Of a stretch of DNA of 64,000 nucleotides, positions 5,706-41,523 are shown in pieces (within the stretch, counting starts at the first letter, position 1; the number at the start of each line of letters is the position of its first letter). The stretch lies in the NCBI RefSeq assembly GCF_044324785.1, contig NZ_CP172127.1; one strand, written 5' to 3'. Position numbers and translations under genes: made by a program. Below the pieces are notes generated by a model that was given only the letters and a program-made list of their open reading frames with translations, had not been told where the DNA came from and searched no databases. Origin of the DNA: Escherichia coli. Its GTDB lineage: Bacteria > Pseudomonadota > Gammaproteobacteria > Enterobacterales > Enterobacteriaceae.

Positions 5706-6365
5706 TTACTGCATCATCCCGGAGAATTTATTCTCCGGGTCCATCTCCAGTGCCAGTCCTGACAACTGCTTTCTGTTTTTAATTAGATACCCTTTCTTGC
5801 TTTTAATTAATAAACCGTCGTGAATGAATTGCGCGAGAACATATAAAAGATGTCGATAAGAAACGCCTAAATACTCTGCCGCTTGCGTATGCTTTTCGTG
5901 ATAAAGATCACCTTCCTGCGAGAGTAATATAAAAGCTGCCAGGCGATTCACTAATGGAAATGATTGATTCTGAGTTAAAGAAACAATATTACGATAATTT
6001 TTATGACTTAAGGTGACGCAGAGTTTTCGTAAAAATAGCGTGTCGTTTAATAACAGCGGGCGGTAATGTTTCATAGGGAGCGCAAGGCACCAACACTCTT
6101 CAATAGCCTGCACCGCACGCGGTTCATGGTCTTTGTCGATTAACTCAATCTCGCCAATAAAACAGGGGGCGGCAAAGAAATCGATCAGCGACACGCGACC
6201 ATTAGCTAGCGTGGCGTAAAGCCTGGCGCGGCCTCGCGTCAGGTAAAACAGCCAGGACGGCTGTTGCCCTTCCTGCACAATGTAGTCACGCGCTAAAAAA
6301 TGAAACAGCCGCGTATCGGCTGAAACATCCGTTGAAAAGCAATCCTTAAACGCGGATTCACTCAT
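5706..6365 (-). CDS. yeiL: CRP/FNR-family transcriptional regulator
   Basis: ORF-track 232-aa frame begins at GTG; internal ATG at 6365 gives 219 aa (MSESAFKD...) matching the K-12 YeiL length; cNMP-binding-like fold plus C-terminal HTH. Confidence 0.85.
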
Positions 6366-6418
6366 CAATTGCTGCTTAAGATCATTATTGTGGATTTCTT
6401 TCACGATGTTTATCCGCT

Positions 6419-6432
6419 ATGAGATTTCTCAT
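6419..6432. promoter_or_regulatory. Perfect palindrome ATGAGA-TT-TCTCAT in the yeiL/rihB divergent promoter region
   Basis: Read directly; 54 bp upstream of the yeiL start, 102 bp upstream of the rihB start. Confidence 0.3.
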
Positions 6433-6533
6433 ATTTAGCATACGTACGCTGTTGTTAAGATTCAATCATCGGCCCGGTCGAATTTTCTTTGCTGTAGAAA
6501 AAATAACGCAACTGGAAACAGAGGAAATAAACA

Positions 6534-7475
6534 ATGGAAAAGAGAAAAATTATTCTGGATTGTGATCCGGGTCATGATGATGCTATTGCAATGATGATGG
6601 CAGCGAAACATCCGGCGATTGATTTATTAGGTATCACCATTGTAGCGGGTAATCAGACGCTTGATAAAACATTAATTAATGGCCTGAATGTTTGCCAGAA
6701 ACTGGAGATTAATGTTCCGGTTTATGCGGGGATGCCACAGCCCATTATGCGGCAACAAATTGTTGCCGATAATATTCACGGTGAAACCGGACTGGATGGC
6801 CCGGTATTCGAGCCGCTGACCCGCCAGGCAGAAAGCACTCATGCGGTGAAATATATCATCGATACCCTGATGGCAAGCGATGGCGATATCACTCTGGTGC
6901 CGGTTGGTCCGCTTTCAAATATCGCGGTGGCAATGCGTATGCAACCCGCGATCCTGCCCAAAATCCGTGAAATTGTGCTAATGGGCGGCGCTTACGGTAC
7001 AGGCAACTTCACCCCATCTGCCGAGTTCAACATCTTTGCCGACCCGGAAGCCGCACGCGTGGTGTTCACCTCCGGCGTTCCGTTGGTGATGATGGGCCTC
7101 GATCTCACCAACCAGACTGTTTGCACCCCGGACGTGATTGCCCGGATGGAAAGGGTAGGCGGCCCCGCCGGAGAGCTGTTCAGCGACATCATGAATTTCA
7201 CTCTAAAAACGCAGTTCGAAAACTACGGCCTGGCTGGCGGCCCGGTGCATGACGCCACCTGCATCGGTTATCTGATTAACCCTGATGGCATTAAAACCCA
7301 GGAGATGTACGTCGAAGTGGACGTTAACAGCGGCCCTTGCTACGGGCGTACGGTCTGCGACGAGCTGGGCGTTCTTGGCAAGCCCGCCAATACCAAAGTC
7401 GGCATCACTATTGATACCGACTGGTTCTGGGGATTAGTCGAAGAGTGCGTGCGCGGCTACATCAAAACCCATTAA
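6534..7475 (+). CDS. rihB: Pyrimidine-specific ribonucleoside hydrolase
   Basis: 313 aa; N-terminal DCDPGHDD nucleoside-hydrolase motif. Confidence 0.9.
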
Positions 7476-7521
7476 GTGTTGATAACAAGCCGGATCAGTG
7501 TCGCAAGATGCAGGCCCGGCT

Positions 7522-7549
7522 ATTTCTGATGGGCAGAAAGCCGTCGCCC
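7522..7549 (+). promoter_or_regulatory. Conserved 28-nt leader element (atttctgaTgggcagaaagccgtcgccc) upstream of nupX
   Basis: Near-identical copy of 4294-4321; the C-to-T change keeps the stem as a G-U pair. Confidence 0.5.
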
Positions 7550-7574
7550 AAAATGACATGAAGAGATAATAACT

Positions 7575-8825
7575 ATGGATGTCATGAGAAGTGTTCTGGG
7601 AATGGTGGTATTGCTGGCAATTGCGTTTTTGCTGTCAGTAAACAAGAAGAAGATCAGCCTGCGTACCGTTGGCGCGGCGTTAGTGTTACAGGTCGTGATT
7701 GGCGGCATTATGCTTTGGTTACCGCCAGGGCGTTGGGTCGCAGAAAAAGTCGCTTTTGGCGTGCATAAAGTGATGGCGTACAGCGACGCGGGTAGCGCAT
7801 TTATCTTTGGTTCTCTGGTCGGACCGAAAATGGACACCTTATTTGATGGCGCAGGATTTATCTTTGGCTTCAGGGTATTACCGGCAATTATCTTCGTTAC
7901 AGCACTGGTGAGTATTCTCTACTACATCGGTGTGATGGGGATCTTAATTCGAATTCTCGGCGGTATATTCCAGAAAGCATTGAATATCAGCAAGATCGAG
8001 TCATTCGTCGCGGTTACTACCATTTTCCTCGGGCAAAACGAAATTCCGGCAATCGTCAAACCCTTTATCGATCGTCTGAATCGCAATGAATTATTTACAG
8101 CGATTTGTAGTGGCATGGCCTCGATTGCTGGTTCGACAATGATTGGTTATGCCGCTCTGGGCGTGCCTGTGGAATATCTGCTGGCGGCATCGTTAATGGC
8201 GATCCCCGGCGGGATCTTGTTTGCCCGCCTGTTAAGCCCGGCTACCGAATCTTCGCAGGTTTCCTTTAATAACCTCTCTTTCACCGAAACACCGCCAAAA
8301 AGCATTATTGAAGCCGCCGCTACAGGGGCAATGACCGGGCTGAAAATCGCAGCAGGTGTGGCGACAGTGGTGATGGCATTTGTTGCCATCATTGCGTTGA
8401 TTAACGGAATTATCGGCGGCGTTGGCGGCTGGTTTGGTTTTGAACATGCCTCGCTGGAGTCAATTTTAGGTTATCTGTTGGCTCCACTGGCGTGGGTGAT
8501 GGGGGTTGACTGGAGTGATGCGAATCTTGCCGGGAGTTTGATTGGACAGAAACTGGCGATTAATGAATTTGTCGCTTACCTCAATTTCTCACCTTATCTG
8601 CAAACAGCTGGCACTCTGGATGCTAAAACCGTGGCGATTATTTCTTTCGCGTTGTGCGGTTTCGCTAACTTTGGTTCTATCGGGGTGGTGGTTGGCGCAT
8701 TTTCTGCGGTTGCGCCACACCGTGCACCGGAAATCGCCCAGCTTGGTTTACGCGCGCTGGCGGCGGCGACACTTTCTAACCTGATGAGTGCCACCATTGC
8801 AGGATTCTTTATTGGCTTAGCGTAG
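7575..8825 (+). CDS. nupX: NupC-family nucleoside transporter
   Basis: 416 aa, paralog of psuT. Confidence 0.9.
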   Translation: MDVMRSVLGMVVLLAIAFLLSVNKKKISLRTVGAALVLQVVIGGIMLWLPPGRWVAEKVAFGVHKVMAYSDAGSAFIFGSLVGPKMDTLFDGAGFIFGFRVLPAIIFVTALVSILYYIGVMGILIRILGGIFQKALNISKIESFVAVTTIFLGQNEIPAIVKPFIDRLNRNELFTAICSGMASIAGSTMIGYAALGVPVEYLLAASLMAIPGGILFARLLSPATESSQVSFNNLSFTETPPKSIIEAAATGAMTGLKIAAGVATVVMAFVAIIALINGIIGGVGGWFGFEHASLESILGYLLAPLAWVMGVDWSDANLAGSLIGQKLAINEFVAYLNFSPYLQTAGTLDAKTVAIISFALCGFANFGSIGVVVGAFSAVAPHRAPEIAQLGLRALAAATLSNLMSATIAGFFIGLA

Positions 8826-8838
8826 TGCGCGAGTTATG

Positions 8839-8872
8839 AGCCGGATAAGACGCGGTCAAGCGTCGAATCCGG
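8839..8872. repeat. Degenerate REP-like palindromic element between convergent nupX and yeiI
   Basis: gccggataagacgcg...gcgtcgaatccggc, resembles the E. coli REP consensus. Confidence 0.4.
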
Positions 8873-8880
8873 CAACATTG

Positions 8881-9969
8881 TTACACCATCGGCACTAATG
8901 AAAGCGCGTTTTCGGCAGACAGGGTAGGGTTGTTTAAGCTGCCGCTGGCGCGTGAAATTGCCGCGCAGGCCATCGCAAAACGGGCGCTGTCACGGAAATT
9001 GTTTCCCTCCAGAAAGCTATATACCAGGCCCGCCATAAAACCATCGTCAGCACCAAAACTGTCTACTGTCGTATGCGCTGGCGCTGTCAGCAAAAATTGT
9101 TCTCCATCCTTTTCGCTGCAATAAACTGACTCATCGGGCAAATAAACAAACAGTTGCTGAACACCTTGCTGATGCAACGTATTCACTGCGGCATTACGGT
9201 CAGCATCGCTGGTGATCGCCTGTCCCCATAAAATTTCCAGCTCCGGTAAAGTGGGTTTCAGGGTGTGAATATGCGCCAGCCAGTGTTTGATTTTGCCCGC
9301 TTTGAATTCTGAAACGGTATCGACAAACACCGGGATTTCATCAGCGAGGGTAAAGACCCACTCCAGCGCCTCGGCTGTCAGGTTGCAATCAGCAAGTACC
9401 ACGCCCGCATGACGAAGTAAATCGCGCGACCCGTTCAGTAGTTGCGGTGTCAACTGATCCAGCAGATGGGTATCGTTAATCGCCAGCACGGTTTGATCGT
9501 CTCGATTGGCAATTGCCAGATACGTCGATGTGCTTTGACCATGTAAACGAACGCAGCCGGAGACATTCACGCCGGCGCGGCGCGTTTCTTCCAGGAGCAT
9601 TTCGCCATAAAAGTCATCGCCAATCACTGAAAGCAAATGGACGTCGCGGCCTAACAGCGCCAAATTGTGGGCGATATTGCGCCCCACGCCGCCCGCCGAG
9701 CAATGAATTGTACCGGGATGAGAAGCCGCTTGCGGGTAACGGATATCCGCCATCCCGCGAATATCCATATTGATTGTCCCCACCACTACGCAGTATTCCT
9801 GCTCGGTGAGAATGTAACCTTTGCCTTTAATTCGACCTTTGCGCATTAAATCCATAATATGCGCCGCAACGCGCGAACGGCTGATTTGCAGCATATCAGC
9901 AATTTCGTTCTGCTGAATCAGCGGGTTACGCCGTAAAATTGCAAGGATCTCCTTCTCCCGGTTGTTCAT
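8881..9969 (-). CDS. yeiI: HTH-domain fused to PfkB-family (PsuK-like) sugar/nucleoside kinase
   Basis: 362 aa; N-terminal winged-helix segment (EILAILRRNPLIQQNEIADMLQISRSRVAAHI) then kinase domain with GGVGRNIAHNLA motif. Confidence 0.85.
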   Translation of the reverse strand: MNNREKEILAILRRNPLIQQNEIADMLQISRSRVAAHIMDLMRKGRIKGKGYILTEQEYCVVVGTINMDIRGMADIRYPQAASHPGTIHCSAGGVGRNIAHNLALLGRDVHLLSVIGDDFYGEMLLEETRRAGVNVSGCVRLHGQSTSTYLAIANRDDQTVLAINDTHLLDQLTPQLLNGSRDLLRHAGVVLADCNLTAEALEWVFTLADEIPVFVDTVSEFKAGKIKHWLAHIHTLKPTLPELEILWGQAITSDADRNAAVNTLHQQGVQQLFVYLPDESVYCSEKDGEQFLLTAPAHTTVDSFGADDGFMAGLVYSFLEGNNFRDSARFAMACAAISRASGSLNNPTLSAENALSLVPMV

Positions 9970-9971
9970 CT

Positions 9972-10829
9972 TCAGGCTACCGCTTTTTCAGTTTGTTGCG
10001 CTTTCAGCCAGGCGATCTCTTCTGCCCAGATATCCGGGTTGATGGTTTCAAGGATCAGCGGAATGCCGTCGAAACGGTCGTCCTGCATGATCCAGCGGAA
10101 CGCATCATGACCGATATTGCCTTCACCGAGGCTATGATGGCGGTCAACGCGGCTGCCAAAGGTGCTTTTCGCATCGTTAAGGTGCATCCCGCGCAGATAC
10201 TTAAAGCCGACAATACGGGCAAAATCAGCGAACGTTTTCTCGCATTCGGCTGGAGTACGCAAATCATACCCGGCAGCAAAAGCATGGCAGGTATCAATGC
10301 AGACGCCGACGCGGGATTTATCTTCCACGCCGTCGATAATCGCCGCGAGATGTTCGAATTTAAACCCTAAGTTACTGCCCTGACCGGCGGTGTTTTCAAT
10401 CACCGCTGTTACACCTTGAGTTTTATCCAGCGCAATGTTGATGGATTCAGCAATACGCGCAAGGCAATCCTCTTCTGAAATCTGCATCAGATGGCTGCCA
10501 GGGTGGAAGTTGAGCAAAGAAAGCCCCAGCTGTTCGCAACGCTGCATTTCATCTATAAACGCATCGCGCGATTTTTCCAGAGCTTCAGCGACCGGATGTC
10601 CGAGGTTAATCAGATAACTGTCGTGGGGAAGAATTTGCGCCGATGTGTAGTGATATTTTTCACAGGCGGCTTTGAATTCATCGATGGTTTGCGTCGTGAG
10701 CGGTGCGGCACGCCACTGACGTTGGTTTTTGGTGAACAAGGCAAACGCGGTTGCGTCGATTTCGGCGGCGCGAATTGCGGCATTTGCCAGACCGCCAGCA
10801 GCACTAACGTGCGCTCCAATGTATTTCAT
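9972..10829 (-). CDS. nfo: Endonuclease IV (AP endonuclease)
   Basis: 285 aa, length and neighbourhood as K-12 Nfo; TIM-barrel AP endonuclease family. Confidence 0.92.
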
Positions 10830-10902
10830 GCGAGGACTCCTGTTAAACCCGCTGGAGGAAAACGGTAATGATAGCGGGTTAACAGGAGCAAGATGTAGTG
10901 GT

Positions 10903-11952
10903 TTATGCGATGACGCTTTGAATCACATAGTTAATCGCACCACCACCAACAATCAGCCAGGCAAACAGTACCAGTGCCATCAGCAGAGGTTTCGCCCCGG
11001 CTTTTTTCAGCGCGCTGACGTGAGTGGTCAGACCCAGCGCCGCCATCGCCATTGCCAGCAGGAAGGTATCCAGCGTTACCAGCATGTTCACCACGCTCTG
11101 CGGTAACAGGTGGAACGAGTTAAAGATGGCAACTACGATGAACAAGATGGCAAACCACGGAATAGTGATTTTGCTTTTCTCGCCGCTGTTCGCCCCAGAC
11201 AGCTGTTTAACACGCGCCGCCAGCAGGATGAGGAACGGAGCCAGCATCATCACGCGCAGCATTTTGGAAATAACTGCTGCGTTTTCCGCATCCGGGCTGA
11301 TGGCATGACCTGCCGCCACCACCTGCGCCACTTCGTGCACAGTAGAACCAATGTAGATACCGAAAGTTTCCGGACTAAACCATTGAGACATCAGCGGATA
11401 TATCGCCGGGTAGAGGAAAATCGCCACGGTCCCGAAGATAACAACGGTTGCAACAGCCACGGTTACTTTACTGGCTTCCGCTTTCACTACCGGCTCAGTC
11501 GCCAGTACCGCGGCAGCACCACAGATACTGCTACCGGCACCGATCAACCAGCTGGTGTGCTTATCCAGACCAAACACTTTCTGCCCCAGGAAGCAAGCCA
11601 GCAGGAAGGTACTGGACAGCGTCAACACGTCAATAATGATCCCACTGATACCGACATCGGCAATTTGCGAGAACGTCAGACGGAAGCCATAAAGAATGAT
11701 ACCCAGACGTAATAAATATTGCTTGGCAAACAGCACACCACCGTCACAGCTTTTCCAGATGTGCGGATAGATGGTGTTGCCTAAAACCATCCCCAACAAA
11801 ATTGCGAGGGTGAGGGCACTAAACCCGGCACCCGCAACCGCGGGAATGGAACCACCCCACAGGGCGACCCCGGTGATAACTGCACTCAGGGCTAACCCCG
11901 GAATAAAATGCCACAGTGTACGATGTTGTTTCTGTAAGGTGATATTCGTCAT
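10903..11952 (-). CDS. yeiH: UPF0324-family inner membrane protein
   Basis: 349 aa polytopic hydrophobic protein divergent from LysR regulator yeiE. Confidence 0.85.
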
Positions 11953-12018
11953 AACCCTCTCCTTTAACCGGGCATAAGGTTACGACTAACTGGTTTAAAA
12001 ATAAAATTGATTATATAT

Positions 12019-12037
12019 TTATAATTAATCTTTATAA
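12019..12037. promoter_or_regulatory. LysR-type box TTATAA-N7-TTATAA in the yeiH/yeiE divergent region
   Basis: Inverted repeat fitting the T-N11-A LysR pattern, 14 bp upstream of the yeiE start. Confidence 0.4.
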
Positions 12038-12050
12038 GTGGTAAGCGACT

Positions 12051-12932
12051 ATGCACATCACCCTCCGGCAGTTGGAAGTTTTTGCAGAAGTATTGAAAAG
12101 TGGATCAACCACCCAGGCGTCGGTGATGCTGGCGTTGTCGCAATCAGCAGTGAGCGCAGCCTTGACCGACCTGGAAGGGCAGCTTGGCGTGCAACTGTTT
12201 GATCGCGTGGGGAAAAGACTGGTTGTTAATGAACACGGGCGGCTGCTCTATCCGCGCGCGTTGGCACTGCTTGAACAGGCGGTTGAAATCGAACAACTGT
12301 TTCGCGAAGACAACGGCGCGATTCGTATCTATGCCAGTAGTACTATCGGTAACTACATTCTGCCTGCAGTCATTGCCCGTTATCGCCATGATTATCCGCA
12401 GTTGCCGATTGAACTTAGCGTTGGGAACAGCCAGGACGTGATGCAAGCGGTGCTGGATTTCCGCGTTGATATTGGCTTTATTGAAGGACCGTGCCACAGC
12501 ACTGAAATCATTTCTGAACCGTGGCTGGAAGACGAGCTGGTGGTTTTCGCCGCGCCGACTTCGCCATTGGCTCGTGGTCCGGTCACCTTAGAACAGCTGG
12601 CCGCTGCGCCGTGGATCCTTCGTGAACGCGGCTCCGGCACGCGGGAGATTGTCGATTATCTGTTGCTGTCACATTTACCGAAGTTTGAGATGGCGATGGA
12701 ATTAGGTAACTCCGAGGCAATCAAACATGCGGTGCGTCATGGGTTGGGAATTAGTTGCCTGTCGCGACGGGTGATTGAAGATCAATTGCAGGCAGGCACA
12801 TTAAGTGAAGTTGCGGTCCCTCTGCCGCGCCTGATGCGTACGTTGTGGCGTATACATCATCGGCAAAAACACCTTTCCAACGCGCTACGGCGCTTTCTGG
12901 ACTATTGCGATCCCGCGAATGTACCGCGTTAA
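12051..12932 (+). CDS. yeiE: LysR-family transcriptional regulator
   Basis: 293 aa; N-terminal HTH ([24 protein letters not shown]) plus LysR substrate-binding domain. Confidence 0.9.
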
Positions 12933-13136
12933 GTTGCTGTACAAGAACATGCTGGTGCTGTGTCGATTTCGTGACGCAGCGCCCTCAGCATGCATTCGCC
13001 AGAAAAGAGATTGGCTGCTTTACTTATAATCCCTGGGCGATCATGAAGGTGTCTTATAACCGTGTATTTCTGCCGGAAGGATTGCCAATCGTCTGCTACA
13101 ATCGCGCCTCATTTTTAAGATGGATAGCATTTTTGT

Positions 13137-27655: not shown

Positions 27656-29651
<1,996 letters not shown>

Positions 29652-29710
29652 GGCGTTGCCTCATAATCATGTAATGGGATAACAGTTTACGAACCCGTTA
29701 TGGCTTTATA

Positions 29711-29726
29711 TGTGATCTGAATCTCA
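29711..29726. promoter_or_regulatory. CRP site (TGTGA-tctgaa-TCTCA) in the cdd promoter, with CytR-like TGCAA motifs nearby
   Basis: CRP-like half-sites about 67 bp upstream of the cdd start; cdd is a known CRP/CytR-regulated promoter. Confidence 0.5.
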
Positions 29727-29780
29727 TTAATTATGCAACGCGTGAAACTTACATCAAAAATGCGCGACGCATCGCAAATT

Positions 29781-30907
<1,127 letters not shown>

Positions 30908-31001
30908 TTAATTCGTAAAACGTGCTACCGATCACATTAAGAATTCTCAGCATAGTTGAATTTTAGGGACGTAACCTCGGGCGAGCGCCCAGTTCAGCAC
31001 A

Positions 31002-31910
31002 CTAATTCTGCTGTAAAAAGTGCAGAAACTGACTTAAAGCATAAGAAGGCGTTTCGTTATTGCGCCAGAACACACCGACGCTGCCTTTCTGTTCTATCTT
31101 TGGCAGGTTGAGGATCACCAGTTGTCCCTGGCTGGCATAACGTTGCGCCAGGCGTAATGACAAAATAGAGATCATATCGCTGCTTTGTAACAGGTTGGTA
31201 CTGACGTTCATCGACGCCGACTCAATCGTGTTTTCTGGCAGCATCACGCCGTGGTCTACCAGCGCATTATCAATACTGATGCGAATGGGGGTACCTGTCG
31301 GCCAGACTATCCACCGCCAGTTAGCAAGATCATTCCAGCTGAGGGTGGCGTATTTCGCCAGTGGATGCTCAGCACGGGCGACAAAACACACCGGCTCGGT
31401 GTAGAGCACCTTATAATTCAGTGGCAGCTGCAAGGCGCGACCGCCAATTCGCCCAACGACCACGTCGACAGAACCTGCCAATAGATCTTGCAGCAATGGG
31501 GTCATAACCTTCTCTTCAATATTCAGGTGTAGAGTTGGCATCTCCTTGAGCAAATGCAAAATCGCCTGGGATACGCAGTCAGTGGCGACGGGAGAACAGC
31601 CAATTTTCAGACTGCCGACCAGCCCACCTTGTTTAAAACGGGCCAGTTCATGTTGCGAGCGCTCCATGTCATTGATTAACCGCTGGGCATGTTGCAATAA
31701 CAATCTACCGCCTTCGGTAGGGCGTAACCCTTTGCTGTGCCGCTCAAAGAGTGTGAGGCCGATCTCATCTTCGAGTTGTGACAACCATTTCGACAGCGCA
31801 GGCTGGGTGATATTCATCATCCGCGCGACATGGGTCAGATTGCCCTGTTCACCCAGCGCCACCAGCATTTGCAGGTGATGAAGCTTTAGTTTCTGCGCCC
31901 AGTTTGCCAT
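31002..31910 (-). CDS. mhbR: LysR-family regulator of the gentisate cluster
   Basis: ATG at 31910 with SD tggagg gives 303 aa; HTH near the N-terminus; divergent from the catabolic operon. Confidence 0.75.
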   Translation of the reverse strand: MANWAQKLKLHHLQMLVALGEQGNLTHVARMMNITQPALSKWLSQLEDEIGLTLFERHSKGLRPTEGGRLLLQHAQRLINDMERSQHELARFKQGGLVGSLKIGCSPVATDCVSQAILHLLKEMPTLHLNIEEKVMTPLLQDLLAGSVDVVVGRIGGRALQLPLNYKVLYTEPVCFVARAEHPLAKYATLSWNDLANWRWIVWPTGTPIRISIDNALVDHGVMLPENTIESASMNVSTNLLQSSDMISILSLRLAQRYASQGQLVILNLPKIEQKGSVGVFWRNNETPSYALSQFLHFLQQN

Positions 31911-31915
31911 TTGCC

Positions 31916-31931
31916 ATAACCTCCAGGTTAT
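31916..31931. promoter_or_regulatory. Palindrome ATAACC-N4-GGTTAT (LysR-type box) overlapping the mhbR RBS
   Basis: Perfect 6+4+6 inverted repeat in the mhbR/mhbT divergent region. Confidence 0.4.
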
Positions 31932-32036
31932 CTCTCTGCCCGAAATGCCATTGTACATTTCATCTCTTTAATCACAATATCGCAACATACATAAAACAAA
32001 AGAAACATCTACCTTACCTGCACTGAGGCATTTACT

Positions 32037-33395
32037 ATGACTCAACGACGTGATTTACAAGCACTGATCGATGCTGCTCCGGTCGGCAAGATGCAGTGGC
32101 GCGTTATCATCTGCTGTTTTCTGGTGGTAATGCTCGATGGTTTTGACACCGCGGCTATCGGCTTTATCGCCCCTGATATTCGCACTCACTGGCAACTCAC
32201 CGCAGGCGATCTCGCCCCGCTTTTTGGCGCGGGTCTGCTGGGGTTAACCGCAGGCGCACTGCTTTGTGGTCCGTTGTCCGATCGCTTTGGCCGCAAACGT
32301 GTGATTGAGCTGTGCGTCTTTTTGTTTGGCGCGTTAAGCCTCGCCTCGGCTTTCTCACCGGATCTGCAAACGCTGGTATTCCTGCGTTTCCTCACCGGCC
32401 TTGGGCTGGGTGGCGCGATGCCAAACACAATTACCATGACCTCGGAATATCTGCCTGCCCGCCGCCGCGGCGCGCTGGTGACGCTGATGTTTTGCGGCTT
32501 TACCCTGGGTTCGGCGTTTGGCGGGATTGTCAGCGCGCAGCTGGTGCCGGTGATTGGCTGGCACGGGATCCTGGTGTTGGGTGGCGTATTACCGCTGATG
32601 CTGTTTGTTGCACTGCTGGTGGTTCTGCCGGAATCGCCACGCTGGCAGGTGCGCCGCCAGCTACCCCAGGCGGTGATTGCGAAAACCGTCAGCGCCATCA
32701 CCCGCGAGCGTTATGTCGATACCCACTTTTATCTCATTGAATCAGCCTCCGTTACAAAAGGCAGCATTCGTCAACTGTTTATGGGGCGTCAGTTACCCAT
32801 CACGTTGATGCTGTGGGTGGTGTTCTTTATGAGCTTGCTGATTATTTACCTGCTCTCAAGCTGGATGCCAACGCTGCTCAACCATCGCGGCATCGACCTG
32901 CAACATGCCTCCTGGGTTACCGCCGCGTTCCAGATTGGCGGTACGTTGGGCGCGCTGGCGCTGGGCGTGCTGATGGATAAGTTCAATCCTTTCCGCGTAC
33001 TGGCGCTGAGCTATGCCATAGGCGCTGTATGCATCGTGATGATTGGCTTAAGCCAGGACGGATTATGGCTAATGGCGCTGGCGATTTTCGGCACCGGCAT
33101 TGGCATCAGCGGATCGCAGGTGGGGCTGAATGCGCTGACCGCAACACTTTATCCAACACAAAGTCGCGCCACGGGCGTGAGCTGGTCAAACGCCGTGGGC
33201 CGCTGCGGCGCGATTGTTGGCTCGCTGTCTGGCGGCGTGATGATGGCGATGAATTTCTCTTTCGACACCCTGTTTTTCATTATCGCTGTGCCCGCGGCGA
33301 TCAGTGCGGTGATGTTAACCCTGCTGATCACCGTGGTTCGCCAGTCGACCTCTGTCCCTGACTCACTGCCTCACGCAGGTGTTGTGAACGAATAA
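32037..33395 (+). CDS. mhbT: MFS aromatic acid:H+ symporter (3-hydroxybenzoate transporter-like)
   Basis: 452 aa 12-TM MFS protein, first gene of the catabolic operon. Confidence 0.75.
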
Positions 33396-33406
33396 GGAGC
33401 ATCCCA

Positions 33407-34435
33407 ATGACTGATAACAATCAAAATAGCCGCGAGCAATTTTATCAGCATATTTCCGGGCAAAACCTGACCCCGCTGTGGGAGTCACTGCACCATCTGG
33501 TGCCAAAAACGCCCAACGCTAACTGTGCGCCAGCGTACTGGAATTATCAGGAGATCCGCCCGCTGCTGCTGGAGAGCGGCAGCCTGATTGGCGCGAAAGA
33601 AGCCGTGCGCCGCGTGCTGGTGCTGGAAAACCCGGCGCTGCGCGGGCAGTCTTCCATCACCGCGACTTTATATGCCGGTTTGCAACTGATCATGCCGGGC
33701 GAAGTGGCACCGAGTCATCGCCATAACCAGTCGGCGCTGCGTTTTATTGTTGAAGGTAAAGGGGCATTCACCGCCGTTGATGGCGAACGCACGCCAATGA
33801 ATGAGGGCGATTTTATCCTGACCCCGCAGTGGCGCTGGCACGATCACGGTAACCCTGGCGACGAACCGGTTATCTGGCTCGATGGGCTGGATCTGCCATT
33901 AGTGAACACTCTGGGCTGCGGTTTTGCCGAAGATTACCCGGAGGAGCAACAACCAGTAACGCGTAAAGAGGGCGATTACCTGCCGCGTTACGCTGCCAAT
34001 ATGTTGCCGCTGTGCCATCAGACCGGGAACTCCTCGCCCATCTTTAACTACCGTTATGACCGTAGCCGCGAAGTGCTACACGATTTAACCCGCCTGGGCG
34101 ATGCCGATGAGTGGGATGGCTACAAAATGCGCTACGTCAACCCGGTCACCGGTGGCTATCCGATGCCGTCGATGGGCGCTTTCCTGCAACTGCTGCCGAA
34201 AGGGTTTGCCTCACGCGTGGCGCGTACCACTGACAGCACCATCTACCATGTGGTGGAAGGTAGCGGGCAGGTCACTATCGGCAATGAAACCTTCAGCTTT
34301 AGTGCAAAAGATATCTTCGTGGTGCCGACCTGGCACGGCGTGTCGTTCCAGACCACGCAAGATACCGTTTTATTTAGTTTTTCGGACAGACCGGTACAAG
34401 AAGCCCTGGGGCTGTTCCGCGAAGCGCGTTATTAA
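33407..34435 (+). CDS. mhbD: Gentisate 1,2-dioxygenase (bicupin)
   Basis: 342 aa; cupin His motifs ([19 protein letters not shown]). Confidence 0.8.
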
Positions 34436-34450
34436 TTTGGGAGAGAGAAA

Positions 34451-35152
34451 ATGACTCAATACGTATTCGAACCACAAGCGCCCGTTACCGTACCGGTTGT
34501 TGGCAGTGATGAACAATTCCCCGTACGCCGCGTTTACTGCGTCGGACGTAACTATGCCGCCCACGCCCGCGAAATGGGCTTTGATCCGGATCGTGAACCG
34601 CCATTCTTCTTCTGCAAACCGGCGGATGCCGTTGTTCCGGTTGCCGCTGGCGAAACGCTGGCGCTGCCGTATCCGGCGCAGACCGATAACTACCATTATG
34701 AAATTGAACTGGTGGTGGCGATTGGTAAAAAAGGCAGTGATATCCCGCTGGAAAACGCCCATGAATATGTCTGGGGTTATGCCACGGGTCTTGATATGAC
34801 TCGCCGTGACCGTCAAATGGAAATGCGCCAGATGGGCCGCCCGTGGGAAATCGGCAAAGCGTTCGATCTCTCGGCCCCCATCGCGCCGCTGCACAAAGCC
34901 AGCGAAACTGGCGGTATTGATAACGCACCTATCTGGTTACAGGTTAACGGCGAAGATCATCAGCGCAGCGATATTCGTCATCTCATCTGGTCAGTGAATG
35001 AAACCATCAGCTACCTGTCAGGCTTCTTTGAGCTGCAACCGGGCGATCTAATCTTTACCGGTACGCCGGAAGGGGTTGGCCCAGTAGTCAAAGGTGATGT
35101 GATCACGGGCAACGTCGAGGGCTTAACGCCTATCGCGGTGAAGATTGTCTGA
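34451..35152 (+). CDS. mhbH: Fumarylpyruvate hydrolase (FAH family)
   Basis: 233 aa FAH-fold protein. Confidence 0.7.
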
Positions 35153-35804
35153 GGTGATGATGAAGCTGTACAGTTTTTTTAATAGTTCAGCGTCTTACCG
35201 GGTGCGCATTGCGCTGGCGCTGAAGGGTATCGATTACCAGACCGAAGGGGTGAATATCCGCATTGGTCAGCAAAACGAACTGGCCTACCGGCGGATGAAT
35301 CCGGTCGGGCTGGTGCCGACGCTGCTGACCGACGAGGGCGAATCACTCGGACAATCGCTGGCGATTATTGACTGGCTGGAGAGTCACTACCCGCAAGTTC
35401 CGCTGATGCCGCAGGAAGAACCGGCCCGCAACAAGGTGCTGGAAATTGTCTATGCCATCGCCTGCGATATTCATCCATTGAATAACCTACGCGTGCTGCG
35501 CTACCTGACCGAAGAGCTGAACGTCAGTGAAGAAGATAAAAAACGCTGGTATGCGCACTGGATCCAGCAAGGGTTAAGCGCGGTGGAACAGCTACTGCGC
35601 CAGAGCCAGTCGGGGCAATTTTGTGTGGGCGAGACGCCGACGCTGGCAGATTGCTGCCTTGTTCCACAGTGGGCGAACGCGCTACGTATGAACTGCGATC
35701 TGAGCGGGTATCCGCGCTGCAAAGCGGTGTACGACGCCTGCACGCAGCTGCCAGCGTTCATTGCCGCAGCGCCAGAAAATCAACAAGATAAAATTTCAGC
35801 CTGA
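35145..35804 (+). CDS. mhbI: Maleylpyruvate isomerase (GST zeta-like); start codon uncertain (TTG 35145, ATG 35157 or 35160)
   Basis: GST N-terminal thioredoxin fold ([23 protein letters not shown]). Confidence 0.7.
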
Positions 35805-35818
35805 CCAGGAGAACCATA

Positions 35819-37012
35819 ATGACTAAAGTGACACGCGCAGTAATTGTGGGAGGCGGGATCGGCGGTGCGGCAACTGCGTTGTCACTGGCCCGCCAGGGGA
35901 TCAAAGTGGTGCTGCTGGAAAAGGCGCATGAGATCGGTGAGATTGGCGCAGGTATCCAGTTGGGGCCAAATGCGTTTTCGGCGTTGGATAGCCTCGGCGT
36001 CGGCGAAATCGCCCGCCAGCGCGCGGTATTCACCGATCACATCACCATGATGGATGCGGTAAACGCCGAAGAAGTGGTGCGCATTGAAACCGGTCAGGCC
36101 TTTCGCGATCATTTCGGCGGCCCTTACGCGGTGATCCACCGGGTTGATATTCACGCCTCGGTGTGGGAAGCGGTACTGACGCATCCGGACGTGGAATATC
36201 ACACCTCCACCAACGTCGTGGATATTCGCGAGACAGAAGACGATGTCACCGTTTTCGACGATCGCGGCAATAGTTGGATCGGCGATATTCTGATTGGCTG
36301 TGACGGCGTGAAGTCAGTGGTGCGCCAGAGCTTATTGGGCGATGCGCCGCGTGTCACCGGGCATGTGGTCTACCGTGCGGTTATCGATTGTGCCGATATG
36401 CCGGAAGATTTGCGCATTAACGCACCAGTACTGTGGGCGGGGCCGTGCTGTCACTTGGTGCATTACCCTTTACGCGGCGGCAAGCAGTATAACCTGGTGG
36501 TGACATTCCACAGCCGCCAGCAGGAAGAGTGGGGCGTGAAGGATGGCAGTAAAGAGGAAGTGCTCTCTTACTTTGAAGGGATTCACCCCCGTCCGCGCCA
36601 GATGCTGGATAAACCGACCTCCTGGCGACGCTGGTCAACCGCCGACCGTGAACCGGTAGCGAAGTGGGGAACGAAGCGCATTACGCTGGTGGGCGATGCG
36701 GCCCATCCGGTGGCGCAGTATATGGCGCAGGGTGCCTGTATGGCGCTGGAAGACGCGGTAACACTGGGTAAGGCGCTGGCGCAGTGTGAGGGTGATGCGG
36801 CACAAGCCTTTGCGCTGTATGAGTCGGTACGTATTCCGCGCACCGCGCGCATCGTCTGGTCGACCCGTGAAATGGGGCGGGTTTATCATGCCGCAGGAGT
36901 AGAGCGCCAGGTACGTAACCTGTTGTGGAAAGGGAAATCGCAGGCAGAGTTTTACCGCGGCATGGAGTGGCTGTACGGCTGGAAAGAAGATAACTGTTTG
37001 CAACCACGCTGA
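35819..37012 (+). CDS. mhbM: 3-hydroxybenzoate 6-monooxygenase (FAD-dependent aromatic hydroxylase)
   Basis: 397 aa; Rossmann [19 protein letters not shown] and DG..S.VR flavoprotein hydroxylase motifs. Confidence 0.8.
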
Positions 37013-37073
37013 GTACTTTAATCCGTTGACCATAGGCGCTAACATAGCGCCTCATTTTTTTGCGGGTGATGAT

Positions 37074-38021
37074 ATGCGTGTGTTACTGGCTCCGATGGAG
37101 GGTGTGCTTGACTCTCTGGTGCGTGAATTGCTGACCGAAGTTAACGACTACGATCTGTGCATCACCGAGTTTGTCCGCGTGGTGGATCAACTGCTGCCGG
37201 TAAAAGTCTTTCATCGCATTTGCCCTGAGCTACAAAACGCCAGCCGGACACCATCCGGTACGCTGGTGCGCGTGCAGTTGTTAGGTCAGTTCCCACAATG
37301 GCTGGCAGAGAATGCCGCCCGTGCGGTCGAGTTAGGTTCCTGGGGCGTGGATCTCAATTGCGGCTGCCCGTCGAAAACGGTTAACGGTAGCGGCGGTGGG
37401 GCGACGTTACTCAAAGATCCTGAACTCATCTATCAGGGTGCAAAAGCGATGCGCGAAGCTGTACCGGCGCATTTGCCCGTAAGCGTAAAAGTGCGTCTGG
37501 GCTGGGACAGCGGTGAGAAGAAATTTGAAATCGCCGATGCGGTGCAACAGGCTGGCGCTACGGAGCTGGTGGTGCATGGGCGGACAAAAGAGCAGGGTTA
37601 CCGCGCGGAGCATATTGACTGGCAGGCGATTGGCGAGATTCGCCAGCGGCTGAATATTCCGGTGATTGCCAACGGTGAAATCTGGGACTGGCAGAGTGCG
37701 CAACAATGCATGGCGATCAGCGGCTGTGACGCAGTGATGATTGGTCGCGGGGCGCTCAATATTCCCAACCTGAGCCGGGTGGTAAAATATAACGAACCGC
37801 GAATGCCGTGGCCGGAGGTGGTTGCTTTGCTGCAAAAATATACCCGTCTGGAAAAGCAGGGCGATACCGGGTTATATCACGTTGCGCGGATTAAACAGTG
37901 GTTGAGTTATTTGCGTAAAGAATACGATGAAGCAACGGAATTATTTCAGCATGTTCGGGTGTTGAATAATTCCCCTGATATTGCAAGGGCTATTCAGGCA
38001 ATTGATATCGAGAAACTCTAA
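37074..38021 (+). CDS. dusC: tRNA-dihydrouridine synthase C
   Basis: ATG at 37074 gives 315 aa ([10 protein letters not shown]...); LNCGCPSK active-site motif; the ORF-track frame begins at an upstream TTG. Confidence 0.9.
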
Positions 38022-38040
38022 AAAACCATAGTGATGTTTT

Positions 38041-38067
38041 TTGACAATGTGTTAGCTCTTTATCAAT
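38041..38067 (+). promoter_or_regulatory. sigma70-like promoter in the IS left end (TTGACA -35, TATCAAT -10 region)
   Basis: Perfect -35 hexamer 20 bp after the dusC stop; the spacer is only 14-15 bp (shorter than the 17-bp optimum). Confidence 0.3.
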
Positions 38068-38069
38068 AG

Positions 38070-38250
38070 GCCGCACGGTTGTTTGGTGGCGTCAAAATCG
38101 CCGAGGCGTTCCCTGAAGGCCGGGGCAGCCCACATGGATGTGGGCTGAGGGCGCGTTTTACAGGGATAATGAGATGGACGCTCCAGATTTTACGGTATCA
38201 AAGTACCAGACTGGATCGTTGCAATACGTCCTGAAAAATTAGGAGCGTCC
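38070..38250 (+). ncRNA. Candidate structured ncRNA (bridge/guide-RNA-like) in the IS110 left end; speculative
   Basis: Downstream of the promoter-like motif; contains a 9-bp stem hairpin cagcccaca-tgga-tgtgggctg (38126-38147) and an inverted 10-mer. Confidence 0.25.
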
Positions 38251-38252
38251 AC

Positions 38253-39278
38253 ATGAAAGTATCAACTCTTGGTATCGACCTGGCAAAGAACGTTTTTCAG
38301 CTTCATGGTGTCGATCATGAAGGCCATACTATTTTGCGTAAAAAACTCACCCGGGCTAAGTTTGTTCAGTTTGTGATTCAACTGGAACCTTGTCTGATTG
38401 GCATGGAAGCCTGCTCATCCAGTCATTATTTTGCGCGATTATTCACCCGCTATGGTCATGAGGTAAAACTCATACCTCCGCAGTATGTGAAGCCTTATGT
38501 GAAAACGAACAAGACGGATGCAGCAGATGCTGAAGCAATCTGCGAAGCGGTAACCCGTCCGAATATGCGTTTTGTTCAGATAAAAACCGAAGAGCAGCAG
38601 GCCGTTTTAGCGTTACACACTGAACGGGGAATACTTATCCGTGAGCGGATTGCCTGTGCCAATAGTTTAAGAGCCACACTTGCTGAGTTTGGTATTACGA
38701 TTGCGGCCGGACAAAGCCATTTAACCCGTGAGCTGCCAGCCATTCTGGAGGATGGCGAAAATGGTTTATCTCCCTTTGTCAGAACCAGCATCTACAGACA
38801 GTCTAAACATATCCGGGAACTTGAAGAACAAGTTAAACAGGTAGAAGAAGCTCTGGCCTCCTGGTATAGAACGCAGGAAGCCTGCCAGAGAATGGCCAAA
38901 ATCCCGGGGGTTGGCATGCTAACGGCCACTTATGTGGTAGCAGCAGTGGGTAATGCCCGACAATTCAGTACCGCAAAGCAGTTCGCTTCATGGCTGGGGC
39001 TGACACCAAAGGAACATTCCAGCGGCGGGAAACAGCAACTGGGAGGGATCAGCAAACGTGGAGATGGATATTTCCGATACCTGCTGGTTCACGGCGCACG
39101 CGCACTTACCGCCTGGGTCAACCGAAACGGCGCGGTTGAGGAGAATTCCTGGCTTCAGGGACTCCTTGAGCGGAAGCACTACAATGTAGCTGTTGTCGCC
39201 ATGGCGGCAAAAACAGCGAGGATCATGTGGTCAATGTTGTCACACAATACTGAATATCAACCTCGGCAGCTCGCCTGA
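38253..39278 (+). CDS. IS110-family transposase/recombinase (DEDD RuvC-like N-domain plus C-terminal Tnp domain)
   Basis: 341 aa; N-terminal LGIDLAKN, GMEACSS, TDAADAEA motifs; C-terminal GLTPKEHSSGGK...GISKRGDGYFR; SD aggag. Confidence 0.85.
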   Translation: MKVSTLGIDLAKNVFQLHGVDHEGHTILRKKLTRAKFVQFVIQLEPCLIGMEACSSSHYFARLFTRYGHEVKLIPPQYVKPYVKTNKTDAADAEAICEAVTRPNMRFVQIKTEEQQAVLALHTERGILIRERIACANSLRATLAEFGITIAAGQSHLTRELPAILEDGENGLSPFVRTSIYRQSKHIRELEEQVKQVEEALASWYRTQEACQRMAKIPGVGMLTATYVVAAVGNARQFSTAKQFASWLGLTPKEHSSGGKQQLGGISKRGDGYFRYLLVHGARALTAWVNRNGAVEENSWLQGLLERKHYNVAVVAMAAKTARIMWSMLSHNTEYQPRQLA

Positions 39279-39638
39279 CACAAGGTCAGTCAATCTGACG
39301 AGGTGCTGAAAAAAAGTTAACGTCCTGGTAGGTGCAGGTGACTTCAGAAGATGGCAAAACAGGTAAGACCGCAGGCAGGATACACCGAGAGGTAACAAGG
39401 GCAAGTTAGCCCGTAGAGGATGATTGGTACCTGCCTGGCGGATTTCATCATGGTTCGGGATAAAAATCCCATCAGAAACCGGATATATGGCTGCACCTAC
39501 CCGTTTTATTACATAACTGAAGAAAGCATTGCATTCCGGGAGCGTCCATATATGTTACCTCGCGCCCGACCCGGTAGCCGTAAGGGATAAGCCGAGGGCA
39601 CCGCGCAGCGGCGATTTTGTTCGCCAGAGCCCGGGGGT

Positions 39639-39670
39639 GCAGGGGGCGGCGGCGATTGGCCGCCCCCTGC
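39639..39670. repeat. GC-rich perfect 12-bp-stem palindrome (gcagggggcggc-N8-gccgccccctgc)
   Basis: Read directly; no flanking U-tract; possibly a REP/BoxC-like host element or IS-associated structure. Confidence 0.5.
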
Positions 39671-39779
39671 GCGCTCCTTGCGCCAGTGATTATATGAAGC
39701 AATGCACATGACAGGAGCGCAACAGGATGAGAGACTGAAATATTCTCGTTATTTTCGGATCTGATGACATTAATTAATT

Positions 39780-39863
39780 TTAAAATATCATCTTAAATAC
39801 GCCAGTCACCACCAGTAGCCCAATCAGGAAAATAATCAATACAGCCCAGAGTATAATTTTCAT
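39780..39863 (-). CDS. yohP: Small (27 aa) single-TM membrane protein
   Basis: Hand translation of the minus strand: MKIILWAVLIIFLIGLLVVTGVFKMIF-stop; below the 60-aa ORF-track cutoff; matches my recollection of K-12 YohP. Confidence 0.75.
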   Translation of the reverse strand: MKIILWAVLIIFLIGLLVVTGVFKMIF

Positions 39864-40086
39864 TGGCGTTCCTTTATTTGTGAGTGCTGAATAAGTATAG
39901 GAAAAAACGAAGTCCTTTGCCGTTATCCATAAACGATTAAGATAAATCGGAAGATATCATTCACTTAGTGTATATTTTTCTGGATATGTCATATTATTGC
40001 CACTGATGTTTTGCCACGCGAAACTAAAAAATATATCGCAACACACGGTAATCTCCGCGCACCTTTTCTTACCTGATTATTCCCCC

Positions 40087-41523
40087 ATGAATCGTGATTC
40101 CTTTTATCCCGCCATCGCCTGTTTTCCGCTGTTACTGATGCTGGCCGGGTGTGCGCCTATGCATGAAACCCGCCAGGCGTTAAGCCAGCAAACGCCTGCT
40201 GCACAAGTTGACACCGCATTACCCACGGCGCTGAAAAATGGTTGGCCAGACAGCCAATGGTGGCTGGAGTATCACGATAATCAGCTCACTTCCTTAATTA
40301 ACAATGCACTACAGAACGCACCGGATATGCAGGTGGCTGAACAGCGCATTCAGCTAGCTGAAGCCCAGGCGAAGGCAGTTGCTACTCAGGATGGTCCGCA
40401 GATCGACTTTTCTGCGGATATGGAGCGGCAAAAAATGTCGGCAGAAGGGTTAATGGGGCCGTTTGCTCTGAACGATCCTGCCGCAGGTACGACCGGTCCG
40501 TGGTACACCAACGGTACTTTTGGCTTAACGGCGGGCTGGCATCTCGATATCTGGGGAAAGAATCGGGCGGAGGTAACTGCTCGCCTGGGTACGGTTAAAG
40601 CACGAGCGGCGGAACGCGAGCAAACCCGCCAATTGCTGGCTGGCAGCGTAGCCCGCCTGTACTGGGAGTGGCAAACCCAGGCGGCGTTAAACACTGTCTT
40701 ACAGCAAATCGAAAAAGAGCAGAACACCATTATCGCCACCGATCGCCAGCTATATCAGAACGGGATTACTTCTTCAGTTGAAGGTGTGGAAACCGATATT
40801 AATGCCAGCAAAACCCGGCAGCAGCTCAACGATGTCGCGGGGAAAATGAAAATTATTGAGGCACGGTTAAGCGCACTTACAAATCACCAGACAAAGTCAC
40901 TGAAGCTTAAACCGGTCGCGTTGCCGAAAGTGGCAAGCCAGCTTCCTGATGAACTGGGGTACTCCTTACTGGCGCGGCGGGCAGATTTGCAGGCGGCGCA
41001 CTGGTACGTTGAGTCATCGTTAAGCACCATTGATGCGGCAAAAGCGGCATTTTATCCTGACATCAACCTGATGGCCTTCCTGCAACAGGATGCGTTGCAC
41101 TTAAGCGATCTGTTCCGTCATTCCGCGCAGCAAATGGGCGTTACGGCAGGCCTGACGCTACCCATTTTCGATAGTGGTCGTCTTAACGCCAATCTCGATA
41201 TCGCAAAAGCCGAAAGCAACTTGTCTATCGCCAGCTACAACAAAGCGGTGGTTGAAGCGGTGAATGACGTGGCGCGGGCAGCCAGTCAGGTTCAGACACT
41301 GGCGGAGAAAAACCAGCATCAGGCGCAAATTGAGCGCGATGCCTTGCGTGTAGTTGGTCTTGCGCAGGCGCGCTTTAACGCGGGCATCATTGCCGGTTCC
41401 CGCGTCAGCGAAGCCAGAATCCCGGCGCTTCGCGAGCGGGCCAATGGCCTGTTATTGCAAGGGCAGTGGCTGGATGCCTCCATTCAACTCACTGGTGCGT
41501 TGGGCGGGGGTTACAAACGCTGA
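40087..41523 (+). CDS. mdtQ: Outer-membrane efflux lipoprotein (OMF/NodT family), apparently intact
   Basis: ATG at 40087 gives 478 aa with lipobox LLMLAGC; uninterrupted frame. Confidence 0.8.
   Translation: MNRDSFYPAIACFPLLLMLAGCAPMHETRQALSQQTPAAQVDTALPTALKNGWPDSQWWLEYHDNQLTSLINNALQNAPDMQVAEQRIQLAEAQAKAVATQDGPQIDFSADMERQKMSAEGLMGPFALNDPAAGTTGPWYTNGTFGLTAGWHLDIWGKNRAEVTARLGTVKARAAEREQTRQLLAGSVARLYWEWQTQAALNTVLQQIEKEQNTIIATDRQLYQNGITSSVEGVETDINASKTRQQLNDVAGKMKIIEARLSALTNHQTKSLKLKPVALPKVASQLPDELGYSLLARRADLQAAHWYVESSLSTIDAAKAAFYPDINLMAFLQQDALHLSDLFRHSAQQMGVTAGLTLPIFDSGRLNANLDIAKAESNLSIASYNKAVVEAVNDVARAASQVQTLAEKNQHQAQIERDALRVVGLAQARFNAGIIAGSRVSEARIPALRERANGLLLQGQWLDASIQLTGALGGGYKR

Follow-up and report, generated by a model that had tools for sequence, protein, structure and literature searches.

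The stretch of Escherichia coli DNA analysed here (64,000 nt of contig NZ_CP172127.1, assembly GCF_044324785.1; hereafter the window) carries a six-gene cluster between the core genes yohJ and dusC, and this segment is orthologous to the mhbRTDHIM operon, already annotated and in the literature. Taking function and history together, we consider it very probable that the cluster serves aerobic 3-hydroxybenzoate catabolism via gentisate and that it occupies an ancestral locus, of which the K-12-type arrangement would be a deletion. The pathway, its enzymes and its strain-variable presence in E. coli are all annotated and published; what our analysis adds is modest and concerns the direction of change, in that the operon would be a retained core-like trait rather than an acquired island. 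An initial annotation, made from the letters of the window alone, had described six open reading frames (ORFs) at 31002-37012 as an island inserted between yohJ and dusC. All six are present at these positions, uninterrupted and full length in the ORF list, with two starts trimmed, and the families proposed for them are borne out by NCBIfam: a LysR regulator, a major facilitator superfamily (MFS) transporter, gentisate 1,2-dioxygenase, an FAH-family hydrolase, a glutathione S-transferase (GST)-like isomerase and a monooxygenase dependent on flavin adenine dinucleotide (FAD). Their order, with mhbR on the minus strand followed by mhbT-D-H-I-M, is indeed that of the Klebsiella mhbRTDHIM arrangement (PMC3572157), and the loci are orthologous. 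It is the word "inserted" that our results do not bear out.

Genes were assigned with NCBIfam curated models and their equivalog cut-offs, plus sequence matches in the PDB, and the two oxygenases clear their cut-offs by a wide margin and far outscore their results on rival-pathway models. The mhbD product scores 598.6 bits on the gentisate 1,2-dioxygenase equivalog (TIGR02272, cut-off 442.1), its sole other NCBIfam match being 5-aminosalicylate dioxygenase at 242 bits (cut-off 650); 337 of its 342 residues agree with those of the solved E. coli O157:H7 enzyme (PDB 2D40), and the cupin metal-binding residues His104, His106 and His145 cited in the initial annotation are present. The mhbM product, which contains the GGGIGG motif cited alongside them, reaches 755.8 bits on the 3-hydroxybenzoate 6-monooxygenase equivalog (NF006021, cut-off 459) and only 139 bits on the salicylate 1-monooxygenase model (cut-off 446). 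It can be aligned end to end with PDB 4BJY/4BJZ, which we take to be the 3-hydroxybenzoate 6-hydroxylase of Rhodococcus jostii RHA1. MhbM keeps the residues aligned with Tyr105, His213 and Tyr217 of these structures, and Arg169 is present; all four presumably have functional roles in the monooxygenase.

The remaining assignments lean more heavily on context. MhbI scores 308.6 bits on TIGR01262 (the maiA model, "maleylacetoacetate isomerase"; cut-off 171) and matches the "maleylpyruvate isomerase" NagL (PDB 2V6K/2JL4) at E 3.5e-48; from its gene context, its substrate would be maleylpyruvate and not maleylacetoacetate. MhbH clearly belongs to the FAH family, with a best NCBIfam equivalog score of 154.5 bits (cut-off 201), PDB matches to 6J5Y at E 2.5e-113 and to the "putative fumarylpyruvate hydrolase" 4MAQ at E 1.2e-73, and 91-92% identity to Klebsiella orthologues in the same operon position, a position that points to fumarylpyruvate hydrolase activity. 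MhbT scores 379.7 bits on TIGR00895 (cut-off 418.55) and 425.8 bits on the PcaK model (cut-off 770), both below threshold; it carries a DGFD motif at residues 34-37 of the translation, is 87-88% identical to Klebsiella orthologues, and is identical to a RefSeq protein named "3-hydroxybenzoate transporter MhbT". MhbR matches LysR family models only, the best being PcaQ-like at 188.6 bits, below the equivalog cut-off, which makes this a family-level assignment; the protein is 100% identical to its RefSeq counterpart in MS 21-1 and shares 84-85% identity with its orthologues in K. michiganensis and K. oxytoca. The specific roles of MhbT, MhbH and MhbR are thus predicted from operon position together with orthology to the Klebsiella cluster. 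RefSeq itself names genes of this set mhbT, gtdA, maiA and 3-hydroxybenzoate 6-monooxygenase.

Could the cluster instead serve a different aromatic pathway, such as degradation of salicylate or 5-aminosalicylate, or of homogentisate and tyrosine via maleylacetoacetate isomerase? The labels would allow it, given the name of the TIGR01262 model and of maiA in RefSeq, the deposition of 4BJY as "probable salicylate monooxygenase", and a "salicylate hydroxylase" reaction in an older metabolic model of enterohaemorrhagic E. coli (EHEC; PMC3229490). The model scores of the dioxygenase and the monooxygenase point the other way, however, the ORF list contains no homogentisate dioxygenase in the cluster, and the orthologous Klebsiella cluster is an experimentally defined 3-hydroxybenzoate pathway (PMC3572157). 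We therefore rejected this alternative, to which we give almost no weight: as the initial annotation had supposed, the enzymes are not closer to those of another pathway.

The history of the locus is addressed by a genus survey, in which one genome per species was scanned with the dioxygenase and the loci found were then searched by tblastn with the window proteins. The arrangement sanA-cdd-yohK-yohJ-[mhbR/TDHIM]-dusC was found at 28 species-level loci with both flanks and at six more with a single flank, the contig or locus ending before the other. The loci come from Escherichia (E. albertii and the divergent "E. coli" E69), Citrobacter, Kluyvera, Klebsiella, Raoultella, Pseudocitrobacter, Pseudenterobacter, Pluralibacter, Shimwellia, Entomohabitans and other Enterobacteriaceae, about 12 genera in the survey, and Salmonella enterica, with the same arrangement, brings the total to about 13. 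The same order of transporter, dioxygenase, hydrolase, isomerase and monooxygenase was seen in at least 40 enterobacterial loci. In Serratia, Trabulsiella and Cedecea, the cluster lies in other genomic contexts. In five loci from Kluyvera and its relatives, the distance from mhbM to dusC exceeds that in other genera by 1.5-2.7 kb, so sequence appears to have been added there in that lineage.

The cluster has also diverged at the pace of its neighbours. Its nucleotide identity to the window is 90.8% in E. albertii (flanks 89.4%), 82.6% in Citrobacter (flanks 80.4 and 79.8%), 80.3% in Salmonella (flanks 80.1 and 81.4%) and 79.4% in Klebsiella (flanks 77.0 and 80.4%), and between species the synonymous divergence (dS) of the cluster is close to the values for cdd, yohK, yohJ and dusC. 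Moreover, bases 181-238 of the K-12 spacer directly follow the mhbM stop codon in the window, E69, E. albertii and Citrobacter; since this right junction is common to all four, that of the window would be ancestral. Shared synteny, flank-like divergence and a shared right junction together point to an ancestral presence of the cluster at this site, and the K-12 state is most simply read as a deletion, or replacement, of an ancestral enterobacterial locus.

As the initial annotation had stated, K-12 is without the genes: in MG1655, yohJ and dusC are separated by a bare spacer of 238 bp (2230386-2230623), identical to the K-12-like empty site used in our blastn comparison. That empty site aligns its left flank up to position 30943 of the window and its right flank from 37016, three bases past the mhbM stop codon, so that 6072 bp of the window stand in place of 108 bp of unrelated K-12 sequence; a multi-species alignment suggests that left-side homology runs on weakly for about 12 bases further. 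No direct or inverted repeats joining the left and right junctions were found, a scan of positions 28000-41000 at Rfam gathering thresholds gave zero matches and hence no tRNA or RNA genes at the junctions, and neither the ORF list nor NCBIfam revealed an integrase, transposase or other mobility ORF inside or abutting the segment. The earlier statement that mobility genes and repeats are absent thus holds for the junctions and fails for the vicinity, where an element of the IS110 family of insertion sequences (IS) lies about 1.15 kb from the right junction. The 108-bp K-12 filler (extract coordinates 2944-3051) holds a perfect hairpin (AGAGGGATTGC…GCAATCCCTCT).

Within E. coli, the survey of 5426 complete genomes bears out the variability that had been expected of the cluster, which is present somewhere in 614 of them and between yohJ and dusC in 504 (about 9%), including O157:H7 and the lineage of the window. 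The K-12-type 238-bp spacer (at least 95% identity) occurs in 4918 (about 91%). The two states together account for 5422 of the 5426 genomes, making the site essentially biallelic, and the operon is a clean marker within the species. In the genomes without the cluster that were sampled, every yohJ-dusC span is consistent with the same 108-bp filler, a uniformity that suggests one deletion allele. On balance, and with some reservation, we favour an ancient presence/absence polymorphism, in which an ancestral locus was deleted once to give the single 238-bp allele, over acquisition by pathogenic E. coli. Literature searches on how the operon is distributed across E. coli lineages gave incidental mentions only.

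Several observations weigh against our combined reading. On the functional side, MhbT, MhbH and MhbR fall below every curated equivalog cut-off, and the Klebsiella comparison was made with species representatives of K. michiganensis and K. oxytoca rather than with the M5a1 sequences. On the historical side, comparison of the filler with the operon and the rest of the window gave only chance matches of 10-13 nt. The cluster has a GC content of 55.6%, slightly above the 51-52% of the surrounding DNA, and the module is mobile elsewhere, on conjugative IncF plasmids and on IS-flanked pathogenicity islands. A purely vertical history also sits poorly with the alleles within E. coli, which are 4-5% apart and exceed their flanks: between the window and O157, the cluster is 95.6% identical (dS 0.12-0.23) and the left flank 98.2% (dS 0.05-0.075).

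Together with the lack of the cluster at this site in most complete E. coli genomes, the last three of these points would be expected if this lineage had acquired the cluster horizontally, as an island inserted in a yohJ-dusC spacer of the K-12 type. Such an event is nevertheless improbable in our view. It would have to be reconciled with the same position and orientation in about a dozen enterobacterial genera, with interspecies divergence and dS equal to those of the flanking core genes, with a right junction like that of Citrobacter and E. albertii, and with the lack of a target duplication, integrase, tRNA or IS at the junctions; the 108 bp present only in the K-12 allele, furthermore, imply replacement and not a clean insertion. 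A weaker form of the idea is possible, in which homologous recombination brought the ancestral allele back in from a different Escherichia lineage. The mobility of the module elsewhere makes re-acquisition through the flanks conceivable, and either deep allelic lineages or such re-import may underlie the divergence from O157.

Two allele classes stand out in the collection, a window-type allele (at least 99% identity) with about 71 records and a large class at 95.6% identity made up of O157:H7 and its relatives. Beyond the yohJ-dusC site, about 110 complete genomes carry the six-gene module at second sites only. Copies on pathogenicity islands lie by IS66/ISEc60 remnants, as in LAU-OXA (extract 6001-12070) and O145:H28 RM13514 (extract 7001-13067), the latter adjoining efa1/lifA, and copies on conjugative IncF plasmids are about 94% identical (for example pHNSHP24-2, extract 7001-12947). 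Two PLSDB "plasmid" records that carry the operon, the 499-kb Salmonella record NZ_CP148876.1, which holds the core genes sanA, cdd, yohJK, dusC and mdtQ, and the chromosome-sized E. coli record NZ_CP134663.1 (4.9 Mb), look like chromosomes mislabelled as plasmids, and they inflate the plasmid count for the operon. A contig labelled MAG (metagenome-assembled genome) Collinsella sp. encodes MhbR, MhbT and MhbM proteins that resemble those of E. coli (98-99% identity), with mhbH and mhbI missing and mhbD truncated; it is a deletion variant of the operon and probably represents Escherichia contamination of the bin.

Among the closest known systems is that of the Klebsiella pneumoniae strain M5a1, which is now usually placed in the K. 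oxytoca/michiganensis group. Its cluster shares with that of the window the same six functions in the same order, a divergent LysR regulator and mhbM after mhbI. The organisation described for it is mhbRTDHIM, with mhbM downstream of mhbI and with MhbR, listed under UniProt Q5EXK6, as a LysR-type activator (PMC3572157). K. michiganensis, K. oxytoca, K. grimontii and K. spallanzanii hold the cluster at the same yohJ-dusC position, with protein identities of 83-92% and with an mhbR-mhbT control region that has the 126-bp length and the dyad seen in the window; they differ from the window by no more than orthologues ordinarily do, nucleotide identity being about 79% in the cluster and equally so in the flanking genes. 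S. enterica likewise has the six genes between yohJ and dusC, at about 80% nucleotide identity and a dS of about 1.1-1.8, equal to the flanks, and differs at the species level only, its dioxygenase being annotated three codons longer. Use of m-hydroxybenzoate and gentisate through the gentisate pathway is attributed to S. enterica by Goetz and Harmuth (1992), as cited in PMC3572157.

In E. coli O157:H7, the locus, the genes and the left junction are the same as in the window, and the dioxygenase differs at 5 of 342 residues; the allele is nevertheless a separate one, as its nucleotide identity indicates. Adams et al. reportedly described the O157:H7 gentisate operon and the structure of its dioxygenase in Mol Microbiol in 2006. 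The O157:H7 allele has about 117 extra nt between mhbM and dusC (Z1834, extract 9013-9131) that the window, Citrobacter and E. albertii do not have, and a GC-rich palindromic repeat (…GGTCCCCTCGCCCCTTCGGGAGAGGGTTAGGGTGAGGG…) lies within this stretch. Its first 45 nt or so recur in the pathogenicity-island copies, which suggests that the mobilised copies derive from an O157-like allele.

More distant relatives are found in Betaproteobacteria, where Ralstonia sp. U2 (nagIKL), Cupriavidus necator (gtd) and Burkholderia xenovorans (mhbRTDHI) have the dioxygenase, the glutathione-dependent isomerase and the FAH-type hydrolase in common with the window, and where the dioxygenases of Variovorax and Polaromonas relatives are 57-60% identical. 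These operons differ in gene order and in their regulators: in B. xenovorans, MhbR is MarR-type and mhbM is unlinked (PMC3572157), and the C. necator regulator responds to maleylpyruvate (PMC11603403).

From these assignments, a substrate route can be proposed. MhbT would bring in 3-hydroxybenzoate, which MhbM, with FAD, NAD(P)H and O2, would hydroxylate at C6 to gentisate. The Fe2+ bicupin MhbD would open the ring to give maleylpyruvate, the glutathione-dependent zeta-class GST MhbI would convert this to fumarylpyruvate, and MhbH would cleave the latter to fumarate and pyruvate. MhbR, probably acting at the dyad ATAACC-N4-GGTTAT, would activate mhbTDHIM in an inducer-dependent manner and repress its own gene. 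This flow and regulation, like the growth phenotype of the strain, are predictions from gene content and comparison with the Klebsiella system of PMC3572157. They are consistent with two points cited in that paper, the growth of E. coli K-12 on 3-hydroxybenzoate when it carries Klebsiella DNA on a plasmid and the use of m-hydroxybenzoate through the gentisate pathway in Salmonella. In genome-scale models, gentisate 1,2-dioxygenase is an EHEC-specific reaction relative to K-12 (PMC3229490).

The regulatory proposal draws on the conservation of the control region. The dyad has a single occurrence in the 64-kb window and does not appear in any of 100 shuffles, and it is almost unchanged across 22 orthologous intergenic regions from more than 10 genera, within a control region whose length of 126 bp is kept in most genera. 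It overlies the Shine-Dalgarno sequence of mhbR, and about 113 nt separate its centre from the mhbT ATG downstream; a conserved block also overlaps a promoter-like mhbR site. Such an arrangement would suit a LysR protein that activates a divergent operon and represses itself, making the dyad a candidate MhbR binding site. Promoter and terminator scans returned matches at background frequency overall, the notable ones being this mhbR site and the hairpin with T-run beyond mhbM; the latter also lies upstream of dusC in K-12 and is likely to be the terminator of mhbTDHIM.

All six genes are under strong purifying selection, with ratios of nonsynonymous to synonymous divergence (dN/dS) of about 0.03-0.08 in the comparisons with O157, E. 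albertii and Salmonella and no higher than this with E69. This bears directly on whether the cluster might be a decaying, non-functional remnant on its way to loss, as the disappearance of the operon from most E. coli and the variant without mhbH and mhbI in one E. coli-like metagenomic contig might lead one to think. The six frames are, however, full length and identical or near-identical to RefSeq proteins, dN/dS is about 0.08 or lower in all comparisons, the catalytic residues that were checked are intact and the intergenic control region is conserved. In addition, a proteomic study of E. coli O157 under bovine rumen conditions lists GtdA as one of the proteins it identified (PMC9135228). 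A decaying pseudogene cluster was rejected on the frames, the dN/dS values and the conserved residues and control region, and we regard it as very unlikely indeed.

The features of the locus and its surroundings are collected in Table 1. Start codons were trimmed with the RefSeq/PGAP annotation of the MS 21-1 region, which is 99.4% identical to the window. That annotation and tblastn against orthologues place the start of mhbI at the ATG at 35160 and not at the TTG at 35145 where the ORF begins; for mhbR, the start at 31910 (302 aa) is most likely, rather than the longest-ORF start at 31958.

Table 1. Features of the mhbRTDHIM locus and neighbouring DNA, in window coordinates.
Feature	Position	Strand	Description
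mhbR	31002-31910	minus	LysR-type regulator, 302 aa; divergent from the catabolic genes; longest ORF reaches 31958
mhbT	32037-33395	plus	aromatic acid/H+ symporter, MFS; assigned as 3-hydroxybenzoate transporter
mhbD/gtdA	33407-34435	plus	gentisate 1,2-dioxygenase (bicupin, Fe2+)
mhbH	34451-35152	plus	FAH-family hydrolase; assigned as fumarylpyruvate hydrolase
mhbI/maiA	35160-35804	plus	zeta-class GST, 214 aa; assigned as glutathione-dependent maleylpyruvate isomerase
mhbM	35819-37012	plus	FAD-dependent 3-hydroxybenzoate 6-monooxygenase
yohJ	30473-30871	minus	left core neighbour; NF002494, 219 bits (cut-off 124); RefSeq agrees
dusC	37074-38021	plus	right core neighbour; NF007838, 696 bits (cut-off 395); RefSeq agrees
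Segment without K-12 counterpart	30944-37015		whole mhbRTDHIM plus short spacers; blastn against K-12-like empty site
Terminator-like hairpin and T-run	37034-37052	plus	mhbM-dusC gap; GC-rich; scan match
Perfect dyad ATAACC-N4-GGTTAT	31916-31931		mhbR-mhbT intergenic region
IS110-family element	38168-39551		1384 bp; 146 bp downstream of dusC
IS110 transposase	38253-39278	plus	NF033542, 359 bits
mdtQ	40087-41523		outer-membrane efflux component, 478 aa, intact

The IS110-family element downstream of dusC is present in one copy in the window. Its insertion site is a GC-rich palindromic spacer with the dinucleotide AT at both joints, and it has a subterminal inverted repeat (ATGGACGCTCC/GGAGCGTCCAT). 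K-12, O157 Z1834 and NRZ14408 lack the element, and MS 21-1 has it at the same site; in the window, yohP downstream of it is intact. It is a separate, strain-specific insertion outside the cluster, and the presence of the cluster is not explained by it. In MS 21-1, synteny with the window stops about 180 bp past the element (near 39730 in the window and 12730 in the MS 21-1 extract), where aqpZ and ybjD stand in place of yohP and mdtQ, and this change of neighbours points to a chromosomal rearrangement in MS 21-1. The mdtQ gene, annotated as a pseudogene in K-12 MG1655, is also intact in O157.

The operon predicts that this strain, unlike K-12, could use 3-hydroxybenzoate and gentisate as carbon sources. 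These compounds occur as plant- and lignin-derived phenolics and as drug metabolites, so the trait may matter in the rumen, the gut and plant material. A 2006 structural paper is said to have presented EHEC as having gained the gentisate operon. If the polymorphism is as ancient as we propose, that narrative would be reversed, and the unusually deep retained alleles would imply either long-term maintenance of the operon or its re-import from divergent Escherichia lineages, perhaps driven by plant-derived phenolics in some gut or environmental niches.

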